From positions 36,022,001 to 36,086,000 of the forward strand of contig OZ024751.1 in the NCBI GenBank assembly GCA_964016885.1: a DNA stretch of 64,000 bases. The letters run 5' to 3'. The position numbers and the translations under genes were made by a program. The stretch comes from Eledone cirrhosa. Lineage: Eukaryota. Numbering within the stretch: position 1 is the first letter of the stretch; each line of letters starts with the position of its first letter. Under the pieces are notes generated by a model. That model was not told the origin of the DNA and did no database searches. It was given only the letters and a program-made list of their open reading frames with translations. Shown here piece by piece: positions 22,672 to 51,845 of the stretch.

Positions 22672-22732
22672 ACTGCCTGAAGTGGTCACAGCCAAAGATG
22701 GCTGTCACTGAAACATATATAGCAGTAATAAA
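22672..22732 (+). ncRNA. Degenerate hammerhead motif, C.C class, followed by AATAAA
   Basis: ACTGC-CTGAAGT-G-GT-C-ACAGCCA-aaga-TGGCTGT-C-AC-T-GAAA-C-atat-A-TA-GCAGT-AATAAA; the A9 position is T. Lies in island 22667-22875 between TA/TC arrays. Confidence 0.65.
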
Positions 22733-24290
22733 CGAAGCTAAATTTTAATCATTTGACTTTTATTTAACTTTATTTTACACTACTCCGGAGTAACCAAACC
22801 AACCTGCGCACTTCGTCGAGTGCTCCAGCCTGCATACAGAGGTGTTGGTATACAAACAACATAAACTCAAAATATCTCTCTCTCTCTCTCTATATATATA
22901 TATATATATATATAGTATTTAATTGATACAACATTTTCTCCTAATTATTGAAGTGCTGGCCACCTTTTACAGTCCACATGGGTATTTTACCCGATTTTCT
23001 AATCTATTAGCAATTGACTGTTGTTACATTATTTATATTCTGTATTTCGGGTTCCTTAATTTTCTAAAATATTTTAATGAATATTATCATTGTACACTGA
23101 CAGATATCTAATGTAGAAAGTGATAACATGTCTACCTTTCAGATTATATTTCTGGGTATATGTCTAGTCAAGTGGAATGATATATAGGCTGAAGCATTAC
23201 ATTAAATTTTCCCCTTTTCAATCTGTGGAGCACGAAATTAGATTCTCTGCAAATTTGAGCAAAAGGACAGATGTCATAATATTTAAAATGTCCATTTAAT
23301 TTTTCACCTGGTTTTTCATACGAGAGACAAGAAATGCTATAAAGATCAACCTTTACTAAAATATATTACAGAAGAAATTATTCAAGAAAGTTAAAATGTT
23401 AACTTATATAATAAAATGAGCGACATTTATTGTTAAATTACCGACATATAACTATATTTCACGGTATATGACTTAGTTCAAATTTCTGTATCACTTGGAA
23501 GGTAATTCAAATATTAGAAGAGTCTGTGTTACTAGAAACTGGCAATACAAAATAAATACTAGGGCTTCTCTAATTCTCTTTGTAAGGAGCACCGCCGAGT
23601 CCTTTGTAGGGACCACACTATCGATTTCAGCTGCTAAATCAGAAAGACAGCAGCCCGCCTGAGCAAAGAACCCTGTGAGACGGGATAGCTTTTCCAGGGC
23701 GTTTCATTTGTCATTCTCCGGAGCAATGCCTTCGCTATTCTGTCTGCGGAGTACGGCCAAAGGAGCATTCGGACTTGGGTATAGATTCAGTCCCTTAAAA
23801 TACCTCTCTCCCTCCTTATCTCTCTCTCTCTCTCTTTCCTTTGTAGCTCCTCTTTGTTCTTTTTCTGTTTCATTTGAATATTATTATTTTCTCAAACTTT
23901 ACAATAGTCACCCCCCCCTCTCTCTCTCTCTGTATATATATGTTATGTATGAACGGCACTTACTATTCACCAGAGAAATTCACATTTCTAATTCATCTTG
24001 TTGTAGGTCATTGAACCCATGGATTATTGTTGTCAATGATAGTGATGTTGTTTATCACCAGATAAAGAGAGCTGATCAAGTTGTCCTATCACAAAAGTAT
24101 TCCAGACATGACCATTCCACCTTATAACATTCCATACATACATTTTAGAAACACTTATATCCATGTATCTAATACTTAATGATAGGTGGATAATTAAATG
24201 CCGCAGCTCAATCGATATATATATATATATATATATATATATATATATATTGGTTCATATATATAAGCATAGATTTATATATATATATAT

Positions 24291-24977
24291 ATATATTGAA
24301 AGGATAACAAGGACGATTGTTTACTCCTTCATTACATTTATTGGTAGGTGACGCGCGTTTCGCCACTGATTAGCTCAAGGTTCGATCTGTATCGATCCTA
24401 CCCGAGTCAATAATAGGAAGCTCGACGGACCCTTTAAAATGCTATAAGAAAATGAAATACATGCTATGTGGTAAAGACAGAATTTCAAAAGTTTGACAAT
24501 ATGAGTTGTTTTGATTGGTGGGAAGGATCAAAGGGATGTACTGCCACCACCACACGACAGTCCATCCCAGCCAGCGACCGTCACCAACATCTCATCATCA
24601 CATCCACCCCCACATACACTACATGTCAATACATCCCTTTGATCCTTCCCACCAATCAAAACAACTCATATTGTCAAACTCTTGAAATTCTGTCTTTACC
24701 ACATAGCATGTATTTCATTTTCTTATAGCATTTTAAAGGGTCCGCGAGCTTCCGATTATTGAGTCGGGTAGGATCGATACAGATCGAACCTTGAGCTGAT
24801 CAGTGGCGAAACGCGCGTCACCTACCAATAAATGTAATGAAGGAGAAATCAATCGTCCTTGTTATCCTTTCAATATATTACACTCTGTATAGCTTTACAC
24901 CTCATCACAGAAGTGAACCTAAACATCGAGTGCTCTCCCGGGTGAACCTGCAGTAACTCCTAGTTACACCCCCTGGA
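24291..24977 (+). mobile_element. Fold-back PLE-like module: ~250-bp inverted arms, 89-nt spacer, ~99-nt tail
   Basis: 24291-24540 is the reverse complement of 24630-24878; each arm has the HHR-like 3' half GGC-GAAAC-GCGC-GTC-ACCTACC-AATAAA; (TA)n on both sides. Confidence 0.85.
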
Positions 24978-25096
24978 TATATATATATATATATATATAT
25001 ATATATATATATATATATATATATATATATATATATATATATATATATATATATATTAAAATACAAATATCAATAAAATAGATGTTCTTTTGATCA

Positions 25097-25159
25097 ATTA
25101 CATTTTATTATACATATTTCAGAGGTACAACAGTACGTCCTCATCAGACAAAATATAAT
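25097..25159 (-). ncRNA. Hammerhead motif, C.C class
   Basis: Minus strand reads ATTATATTTTGT-CTGATGA-G-GA-C-GTAC-tgtt-GTAC-C-TC-T-GAAA-T-atgt-A-TA-ATAAAATGTAAT, with a 12-bp helix I including two G.U pairs; in a ~135-bp island between TA arrays. Confidence 0.78.
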
Positions 25160-25912
25160 GATACATGACATACCCTGAGATGTTAAATGGTTATATATAT
25201 ATATATATATATATATATATATATATATATATATATATATACACACACACACATATATATATATATACATATATATAAATCTGTGCGTATATATGAACCG
25301 ATATACATAGACTACATAGATTCATAATAGATATGTATATGTATACGTAAACACATTCACACGCACATACTTACATACATATAAATATAATACGTAGATG
25401 CACTCCTACCTACATACACACATACACACATACATAGACAGTGCAAATCACAAAACGAGATATTTCACTGTTAATAGTGAACATTGAATTCAAACCACGT
25501 TATTAAAATCTAGTTATATGTATGTATGTATGTATGTATGTATGTATGTATGTATGTATGTATGTATGTATGTGCATGTAGGGGTGTATCTATATATGCA
25601 TGCATGCATATATCTATGTATCTACGTACTTAAGTGTGTGTCTGTATATATATATTTATATATATGTATGTGTGTGTATGTATGTAAGTATATATATATT
25701 TTCCCTGATCTTTTTTTCGTCCAATAACAATAGGCATCAATATGATTTATTGTATATAAGCGGCTGCCTTCCATTCATCTTTTCCTGATAATTGCTGACT
25801 TATAGTTTTATATATTCATATATCAAAATCATTCTTTTTCTTATGTTCCATTTTAAAATTAATTTCCATTTGATATTTGCAAATGACAAAGGAACTGAAT
25901 AAAGATACATTC

Positions 25913-50384: not shown

Positions 50385-50587
50385 GCTTTAATGCTGATCC
50401 AGGAGTCGACACCGAGCAAGATGGTTGGATAAAATCCACGAGTTTGGTTGATATCGTTCGGGCATACAGCTAAATCTATTGGAAACAGTTGCTTCTGACA
50501 GGACCCGCTAGAAAACGTGGTTGAAGACTCTGACCCATTAAAGAAGAAGAAGACGAAGGCGAAGAAGAACATGGTGAAGAAGAAGAT
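50385..50587 (+). mobile_element. 3' end of an RTE-clade LINE with (GAA)n tail
   Basis: From 50404: SRHRARWLDKIHEFG*YRSGIQLNLLETVASDRTR*KTWLKTLTH*, matching the GRPR.RW.D ... A.DR..W terminus; homologous to 63720-63907. Confidence 0.7.
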
Positions 50588-50589
50588 TA

Positions 50590-50735
50590 AATAATTGTTT
50601 CTAATTTTGGCACAAGACCTGCAATTATCGCAGTGTATTACTGGTGCTTTATTTTATCGATCCCTTAAGGATGAAAGGCAAAGTTAACCTCTGCGGGATT
50701 TGAACTCAGACCATAAAGGGCCGTAACTCTTTGCT
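50590..50735 (-). mobile_element. SINE family A, 5'-truncated
   Basis: Family match. Confidence 0.88.
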
Positions 50736-51542
50736 ATAAGAAAACCTGCTCAATCCGAATGGAGGAGGAGATCTATGCTAAATGTCAGTTGAAACATTTA
50801 GATGCACGGTATAAATATTCTTGGAATACAATGTCACACATCTATCACATTGACGACAAGGTTATACAGCAAAATATAATTCTTATACTTTTGAAATGGA
50901 TTCTTATAAAATACAATTATCTATCTCTCATCGTAAAATAAAAATAATAGAAAAACTAAAAAAAAATTTTGAAATTCAATTCAATGAGTGAGATAAAAAA
51001 AATATTCAGAAAAATGGTGCAATGCCACATTTAAGTGATAAATCATTTTTATACTTCAACTGCTCTGAAATGTGTTAAATTATAAATATAGTTTTCGAAG
51101 TGTATTTCTGGTATTTTTTTCGTATTCTCAGAGGCAAAAGCGAAGAAAATCTAACACTTTATATTCTTCTGAGCGGCAAAGCAAGGAGAGATACAAGGAA
51201 AAACACCAGGTGTCTCCATCGGTTTAAATTTTTACACATGAATAACGGCATATTTACAGCATTTAGTTTCATTTATGTTTGGAAATGAAAAAAAAGGTTA
51301 TGTACTTTTCAAAATATTTTGAATTTTCTCACTTATGCAAGTCTGCAAATGCTTACAAATTCTCTACACGTCTTTATAAATGCAGATACGTGGAAATTTA
51401 GTTTCTTTAGAAAACCGAAATGAAAATTACGATCATAGAAACATGAGGATATACGCGTACAGAAAGATAAGCCCCAATACAAACACAAACACACATACAC
51501 TCTTTCTCTCTCTCTCTGTTATATATGTATATATGTATATAT

Positions 51543-51845
51543 ATTTAAATTGTTGGGATACAACAAGCAAATATTTTTGTAACTGATATAAAGCACTCAA
51601 CAAATAATTGGAGTAAAAATACGATATTAACAAATGGAAACTATGTTTATAAAACCATATTTATTTCATTATACATATTTCAAGGACACCAAGCTAACTT
51701 ATGGCGTGCTTTCATCAGATAAAATATAATATAGAGCAGTTTTATAAATAAATATTGACATACCCTTAAAGAATGCAACCATTACTGTTGGAAGCTCCCG
51801 GGAGCTTCCAACAGTAATGGTTGCATTCTTTAAGGGTATGTCAAT
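51543..51845 (-). mobile_element. Family P2 module: perfect 92-bp palindrome at the 5' end, HHR, tail ending at TA
   Basis: Palindrome 51754-51845 centred on CCC|GGG with no spacer; tail homologous to 40590-40735. Confidence 0.8.
51662..51726 (-). ncRNA. Hammerhead motif, C.C class
   Basis: Minus strand reads TATTTTAT-CTGATGA-A-AG-C-ACGCCA-loop-TGGTGT-C-CT-T-GAAA-T-atgt-A-TA-ATGAAATA. Confidence 0.78.

Follow-up and report, generated by a model that had tools for sequence, protein, structure and literature searches.

Why should a ribozyme keep an unpaired cytosine within a stem whose neighbouring base pairs have all been exchanged? This question is raised by a 64,000-nucleotide stretch of the Eledone cirrhosa genome (assembly GCA_964016885.1, contig OZ024751.1, positions 36,022,001 to 36,086,000 of the forward strand; hereafter the window), in which a first-pass annotation had pointed out five hammerhead motifs sharing a C·C opposition in helix II. 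We found all five as described and name them by the position of core residue C3, as 22677(+), 25147(-), 40549(+), 41019(+) and 51718(-); the first-pass annotation had placed them by their helix I ends, not by C3. When helix II is numbered outward from the core as steps 1, 2, 3 and so on, the C·C opposition falls at step 4, and every motif has the layout CUGANGN, N-[2 pairs]-C-[stem-loop]-C-[2 pairs]-U, GAAA-Y-NNNN-A-UA. With steps 2 and 3 required to pair, this pattern matched five times in the window and not once in 200 local shuffles. Step 1 reads, in the order given above, G·U, G·U, A-U, U·U and A-U. The core CUGANGA ... GAAA ... UH is intact in four of the five copies, the exception being 22677, which has the annotated U at A9 and also a C at 15.2 opposite A16.2. 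Its family reads CUGAAGA ... GAAAUAUAUAUA, with A and U at these two places, and because both residues depart from the family we regard 22677 as a decayed copy. The 40549 copy is truncated at the core, where the 5' strand of helix I is replaced by a 17-bp foldback (40534-40550 against 40553-40569).

To place these copies in the genome we counted exact patterns over the 3.0-Gb assembly, with the reversed pattern as control and with U before GAAA and an AUA triplet required. C·C at step 4 gave 64,264 matches (control 30) and C opposite A or U gave 24,662 (control 16), while a C-G pair gave 408 (control 5) and any other base than C on the 5' side gave 4,305 (control 255). The excess of C·C over C-G indicates that the step-4 mismatch is the family consensus and not decay; the first-pass annotation had proposed checking family consensuses at this position, and no Watson-Crick consensus was found there. 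The C-G and non-C matches listed are dispersed among all the families and resemble isolated substitutions acquired after insertion, except for an unrelated tandem array on C2 among the listed C-G matches. The 5' C is present in ~96% of the copies with U11.1. Invariance of the C·C pair itself holds for the five window copies but not genome-wide, since the partner is U in a lineage of ~23,000 copies (AAAC/GAAC, which by manual count supplies 93 of the 100 C·A and C·U matches listed) and A in smaller families. The constant feature is thus an unpaired 5' cytosine at step 4, whose partner is C, U or A, and not a strict C·C pair. The U reported as constant at 11.1 is likewise constant in the window only: 22,921 matches (control 191) have A, C or G before GAAA, and those listed belong to amplified families whose step 1 is G-C, A·C or A·A. 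Almost all of them keep the 5' C, and one family has C·A at step 4. Summed over the genome counts, the motif class amounts to ~115,000 copies. Relaxing the pattern to admit other cleavage triplets yielded 11,888 matches where the control yielded 11,326, which makes the count uninformative. The class pattern gave 12 matches in viral contigs, none with both helix II and helix I paired.

We then extracted 333 distinct motifs from loci of this genome with a filter blind to step 4, and retained the 33 stem signatures present in at least two independent places. Pairing is kept next to the core while the bases vary, as had been suggested from the window copies: step 2 is paired in all 33 signatures (A-U 15, G-C 13, G·U 5), and so is step 3 (G-C 12, U-A 12, A-U 8, G·U 1). 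Step 1 is paired in 24 and unpaired in nine (A-U 12, U·U 7, G-C 6, G·U 6, A·C 1, A·A 1), step 5 is paired in 28 with A·C in four, and step 6 is paired in 32; across the signatures, both members of the pair have changed at each of steps 2, 3, 5 and 6. Step 4, by comparison, is paired in none (C·C 27, C·U 5, C·A 1), and its 5' base is C in all 33. The signatures collapse to about six lineages, five of which have C·C. Helix I positions 1-4 are paired across lineages, with C-G/U-A/G-C changes, and the 6-nt segment that separates GAAA from UA is palindromic or close to it (UAUAUA in 104 of the 333 motifs, UGAUCA in 95, UAUGUA in 62 and UGCGCA in 42). Fold prediction for the five isolated window stems paired steps 2 and 3 with a probability of 0.84-0.95.

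Judged from sequence, the five motifs are the 3' ends of a Hydra-clade lineage of Penelope-like retrotransposons (Penelope-like elements, PLEs). The first-pass annotation had recognised them as minimal type I hammerheads of the PLE kind, and this stands, with the core, helices I and II, a short palindromic helix III and linked open reading frames (ORFs) for a reverse transcriptase (RT) with a GIY-YIG nuclease. At locus L031, a 566-codon frame carries RT motifs, a linker and a GIY-YIG-type nuclease; it is followed by a 1.7-kb 3' region, the C·C motif near its end and (TA)n, with an inverted end copy at the 5' side. The CxCX5C linker (CNCRNKSNC in L031, CNCRIKNKC in L087) and the ensuing Y-x-G-S-T nuclease motif were judged by inspection, and Pfam assigned no family to three element ORFs. 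DKT stands in place of DKG (SDKTNNLY in L064, L085 and L087), and the place of the N-terminal RWK motif reads RWR in L064, RWT in L087 and RWI in L089. Insertion at (TA)n, a hammerhead in the 3' pseudo-LTR (long terminal repeat) and an inverted truncated copy at the 5' end were all seen in elements of the class. These features, DKT included, match the description of the Hydra clade by Craig et al. 2021 (PMC8557442), whose reference sequences were compared by eye in passages of its alignment. A first-look search of the genome for the RT of the L031 family returned 41,884 candidates, and the top 150 share 93-100% identity.

ORFs could be tied to motifs in four lineages. The AGGC/AAGC lineage, to which the window copies 40549 and 51718 belong, is ORF-linked at L031, L083 and L085. 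In the GGAC lineage (25147) the motif lies downstream of the ORF in L281, and inverted copies are found in L260, L261, L265 and L266, while in the GGUC lineage (22677) the motif lies ~1.2 kb downstream of the ORF on the same strand in 14 of 20 loci. The AAAC lineage, which has C·U at step 4, is ORF-linked at L087 and L089, and the L087 frame runs stop-free for 821 codons. The UAUC family (41019), with 5,460 genome matches, has a tandem unit of 2,362 bp (L254:6249-8611) with internal repeats of ~200 bp, and many of its copies are complex tandem and inverted rearrangements. No ORF was tied to this family in 25 long copies and ~12 extended stretches, and the family is probably non-autonomous. The link of the family to an ORF near L140 is not a safe one.

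Copies with (TA)3 within 90 nt of the predicted cut reach their (TA)n end at medians of 49, 55, 55, 38 and 52 nt in five groups. As the copies extend past the predicted cut, the templates of these insertions would have had the cut site intact or rejoined. Separately, an AAUAAA starts 4-5 nt past the predicted cut in 73 of 85 AGGC, 104 of 112 UAUC and 42 of 49 GGUC copies (first 30 nt), and is found past the cut in only 1 of 45 AAAC and 2 of 26 GGAC copies.

To ask how often the unpaired C arose, we built a quick maximum-likelihood tree of 108 RT cores (12 from this genome, 78 from metagenomes and 18 from ENA), midpoint-rooted and with other PLE clades left out. The 12 own-genome cores, which include two (L092 and L252) unlinked to the motif, make up one side of a branch of 0.71 changes per column with a Shimodaira-Hasegawa-like approximate likelihood-ratio (SH-aLRT) support of 100. 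The four linked lineages are 51-67% identical to each other in RT sequence, and at most 45% identical to outside rows. The five motifs had been flagged as not fully independent, and beyond the lineage shared by 40549 and 51718, all the linked RTs form one branch. From the metagenome loci (L143-L220), many of which end soon after the ORF or yield no motif, a filter demanding pairing at steps 2 and 3 gave an outgroup of 40 distinct motifs, one of them (the second match in L177) probably due to chance. Step 4 is paired in 37 of these 40; C·C and C·U are absent, C·A occurs twice and G·A once. The outgroup has its own Hydra-type signature: 33 of its motifs have U-A at step 2, and 35 have G-Y at step 3. 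Because the own-genome RTs form one branch and the outgroup motifs mostly pair at step 4, the unpaired C is a trait of one branch, with a single origin.

Within that branch the C has been retained while every neighbouring pair has changed on both sides and the RTs have diverged to 51-67% identity, and the unpaired 5' C is therefore likely kept by purifying selection; it also likely makes a specific contact. The annotated proposal that the C·C pair is selected thus agrees with the pattern of retention, but needs amending as to its object, which is the 5' C and not the pair. With half-diverged RTs, the ~115,000 copies act as a natural mutational scan, in which one base outside the catalytic core is singled out. 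Two further observations were made alongside the tree. L092 (G000:C1:5983500-5989100) and L252 are two more RT lineages of the same branch, and their own 3' hammerheads were not identified; a link between the L092 ORF and a GGUC motif was dropped, the motif there sitting inside a separate foldback insertion. The metagenome Hydra-type hammerheads come from unrelated samples and share N·Y, U-A and G-Y next to the core, a signature not stated in the available parts of the PMC literature text.

What would such a C be kept for? The explanation we rank first, and hold tentatively, is that it opens a small internal loop in the long helix II, by which this helix would touch helix I in a ribozyme predicted to cleave as a dimer, as a trait of one Hydra-clade branch kept by selection. 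Helix II of canonical type I hammerheads is 4 bp long and is closed by a loop, which docks on helix I. We favour an RNA contact because canonical helix II gives way to the docking loop at just step 4, whereas helix II of this class continues for 7-15 steps. With a 1x1 loop at step 4 the helix would regain a surface for docking close to its usual height, and the step-4 C would make a tertiary contact to RNA or to a metal. A known contact in hammerheads is that of a loop-II A with U1.7; a contact of that type was dropped, as C, U and A all occur as the 3' base of step 4. Cleavage of the class RNA as a dimer is predicted by analogy with other PLE hammerheads: those with a minimal palindromic helix III are described as cleaving slowly and as dimers (in the available parts of PMC4209133 and of the review PMC6765202), and two tandem copies would here complete helix III for each other in the manner described in PMC4209133. 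Self-cofolding of the 25147 motif predicted an 8-bp intermolecular helix III.

Several points weigh against a docking role. Predicted self-dimers of the other four window motifs (22677, 40549, 41019 and 51718) lack an intermolecular helix III, so that one of five is positive. Long and fully paired helices II are present in other Hydra-type motifs (L155, L177 and L208) and in a 5,404-copy family of this genome, from which it follows that long helices in general need no such loop. We saw no conserved G partner for the step-4 C in helix I positions 1-7 across lineages, and PLE hammerheads are described as having no loop-loop contacts (PMC7761336, available in part). The single origin reduces the independent evidence from 33 signatures to about six lineages, and the preference against G on the 3' side, a weaker claim, depends on a small number of changes (C to U or A was seen, C to G was not) and is not statistically firm alone. 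Finally, most of the loci behind the 333 motifs were fetched with patterns demanding the 5' C, a bias that is bounded by the whole-genome counts; only these counts and a minority of the loci sets are free of it.

Ranked second, as a close rival with a smaller share of our belief, is a role as a recognition mark for the RT/endonuclease of the element, an enzyme that would attach to the hammerhead and begin reverse transcription at a set distance downstream of it. In every lineage the copies do end about equally far beyond the predicted cut (medians 38-55 nt), but a tail of 30-40 bp and 3' hammerheads are general to PLEs (PMC8557442, available in part), so this spacing is not special. The 2.36-kb UAUC family retains the C with no ORF found, and other Hydra-type elements carry their own signature at the same place of the stem. 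The switch of signature falls on the long RT branch that separates them, as a protein mark would have it, yet one co-change on one branch does not establish co-evolution. That the hammerhead as a whole is a cis-acting handle for the RT, with the protein reading the C, reverse transcription starting ~50 nt downstream and ORF-less 2.4-kb derivatives borrowing the enzyme, we consider somewhat less likely again. If this were true, PLE hammerheads would have a role beyond cleavage, and the signatures that each sub-lineage bears at helix II steps 2-4 would be explained; the in vivo role of these ribozymes is described as unresolved in the available parts of PMC8557442 and PMC7761336.

It is distinctly unlikely that the mismatch serves as a brake, in which a proximal helix II made weak by a loose step 1 and just two pairs ahead of the mismatch would keep most transcripts uncut and let the tail past the cut survive as template. 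Every inserted copy does include sequence beyond the predicted cut, step 1 is unpaired in nine of the 33 signatures and step 5 is A·C in four, and PLE hammerheads are slow in vitro (PMC4209133, available in part). However, any mismatch would weaken the stem, and yet the 5' base is C in every one of the 33 signatures; the high predicted pairing of steps 2 and 3 in the window motifs moreover makes the weakening modest. More doubtful still is a C without function, inherited by descent from an ancestral accident. One origin would suffice for this, all linked RTs being on one branch, and the 3' partner does drift between C, U and A. The RT cores have nonetheless diverged to the extent given above and steps 2, 3, 5 and 6 have been replaced on both sides, and an unconstrained C in a 3' region rich in A and T should drift; one substitution, making C-G or G-C, would be enough to strengthen the stem, yet none of the 33 multi-copy signatures has either pair. 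A strict C·C pair acting as a pH- or metal-sensitive switch, as the first-pass annotation had offered, fits the five of about six lineages with C·C but is very improbable, since a young and successful lineage uses C·U and smaller families C·A, neither of which forms the protonated C·C+ pair.

The positions of the motif copies and of the foldback are given in Table 1.

Table 1 Copies of the hammerhead class in the window and the foldback at one of them (window positions; cleavage sites and folds are predictions).
Feature	Positions	Strand	Basis or closest relatives
GGUC-lineage copy, 5'-truncated, 3' end; C3 22677, C·C 22687/22706, predicted cleavage after 22721, reads as decayed (A9U, U15.2C)	22666..22777	+	93% over 113 nt to L326, with a Hydra-type ORF upstream there
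GGAC-lineage copy, 3' end; C3 25147, C·C 25137/25124, predicted cleavage after 25109, intact core, helix I ~12 bp	25053..25193	-	96% to the L247 copy, 83% to ORF-linked L281
17-bp foldback where the 40549 copy is truncated on its 5' side; predicted to prevail over the hammerhead fold	40534..40569	.	Sequence and fold prediction
AGGC-lineage copy, 3' end; C3 40549, C·C 40559/40583, predicted cleavage after 40598, helix I without 5' strand	40548..40756	+	96% over 209 nt to ORF-linked L083
UAUC/UGUC family copy (2.36-kb unit, no ORF found), 3' end; C3 41019, step 1 U·U, C·C 41029/41053, palindromic UGAUCA, predicted cleavage after 41068	40945..41124	+	Sequence, related copies
AAGC copy (AGGC lineage), 3' end; C3 51718, C·C 51708/51685, predicted cleavage after 51670	51520..51803	-	81-85% to L031, L083 and L086

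The window also holds hammerheads of other kinds; its repeat search and ORF listing are dominated by (TA)n. A GIY-YIG fragment at 38421-38831(+) (Pfam PF01541) is followed at 39039(+) by a minimal hammerhead of another type, which has an extra base and pairs throughout helix II; this is the 3' end of another PLE family, and a related motif lies at 17524(-). An inverted pair at 21732(-) and 21946(+) has a 9-bp fully paired helix II with N·A or U-A at step 1; its family has 5,404 genome matches, and no ORF link was found in 30 loci. A canonical type I hammerhead with a 4-bp helix II, a 6-nt loop and GUC lies at 3596(+), and two more core-like motifs lie at 31833(+) and 28014(-). Elsewhere in the genome, L130:380-4132(-) is a retrozyme-like array of nine tandem 469-bp units, each with a short hammerhead (step 1 G-C, then four further pairs), and short hammerheads akin to these occur in L086, L089, L090 and L120.

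Sequencing runs mapped to two element ends differed from each other in a particular way. A>G and T>C differences were almost confined to run X4, which is from another sample than X1 and X2. In L031:1850-2240, several T>C sites (1915, 1916, 1920, 1921, 1926, 1946 and 1951) reached 26-72% of summed depth in X4 against <3% in X1/X2, and in L087:4700-5040 both A>G and T>C reached 5-16% against <0.06%. This looks like A-to-I editing, on both strands, of transcribed element ends, in a run whose type is not on record and with no DNA from the same individual.

How does this class compare with the hammerheads already known? Rfam returned 26 matches at E up to 10 over 40480-41110, an interval with two of the motifs, none to a hammerhead family, and no hammerhead family was among the 150 listed of 360 matches over the whole window; the matches found were microsatellite-driven microRNA families only. 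Because Rfam misses the class in the stretch tested, a very large hammerhead population may be unannotated in this genome. Small PLE-associated hammerhead variants defined by stem III are said to have been reported by Lünse, Weinberg and Breaker in 2017 (RNA Biol 14:1499), and we think it fairly unlikely that the present variant is already drawn there. Such PLE-associated variants, with a short stem III and cleavage as dimers, are also treated in the available part of a review (PMC6765202). We found no account of the variant in literature text on hammerhead C-C stem II mismatches, octopus or cephalopod hammerheads and Penelope, a search with figures outside its scope, and the available parts of PMC13282606, PMC6962438, PMC10085705 and PMC3088659 do not describe it.

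The first-pass annotation had called for comparison with published variants, and this brings out both what is shared and what is distinct. The Hydra-clade PLE hammerheads of Craig et al. 2021 (PMC8557442) are alike in lying 3' of an ORF for an RT with a C-terminal GIY-YIG, in (TA)n targets, in a short self-complementary helix III, and in the one nucleotide per side that separates the core from helix II, which is U·U in 14 of the 26 Hydra rows of File S2. None of these 26 rows, however, shows a C·C, C·U or C·A as its fourth step; their helix II is paired and 3-7 bp long, and their triplets are GUH where the class here has AUA. Hydra-1_oBim of Octopus bimaculoides, from the same work, likewise differs in a fully paired helix II and in its RT motif (GAYDSADICD against GSSDSAQVTD here).

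The minimal PLE hammerheads of Cervera and De la Pena 2014 (PMC4209133, available in part) resemble the class in being type I with a conserved core and a long helix II, in a minimal palindromic helix III that needs a dimer, and in the many sequence families per genome; their Aedes and D. willistoni rows share the U-NNNN-A helix III, and the Schmidtea and D. willistoni rows of Fig. S3 the AUA triplet. Their consensus differs in having one unpaired base 5' of a G10.1-C11.1 pair and then a fully paired helix II, which the signatures of this class do not have. C·C is found in none of the 56 rows of Fig. S3, where the fourth pair is C·A once (S. purpuratus 1) and U·U once (Clonorchis 2), and the D. 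virilis hammerhead has a bulge in mid helix II. Since U·U is present in the Hydra rows and AUA in two rows of Fig. S3, neither the U·U at step 1 nor the AUA triplet is new, and U10.1·U11.1 is described as tolerated in hammerheads (PMC3088659, available in part); the variant with an unpaired 5' C at step 4 is in neither File S2 nor Fig. S3, where the C·A row is a single example.

The non-LTR retrozymes, as described in the available parts of PMC7761336 and bioRxiv 10.64898/2026.07.22.740005, are ORF-less tandem units with a type I hammerhead that are proposed to be moved by PLEs, and the UAUC family fits them in kind. They differ from it in having units of ~150-300 bp and canonical tertiary contacts, where UAUC has its 2,362-bp unit with the motif of this class. 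Set beside these systems, the hammerheads with an unpaired step-4 cytosine are a real and very abundant structural variant of the PLE hammerheads.

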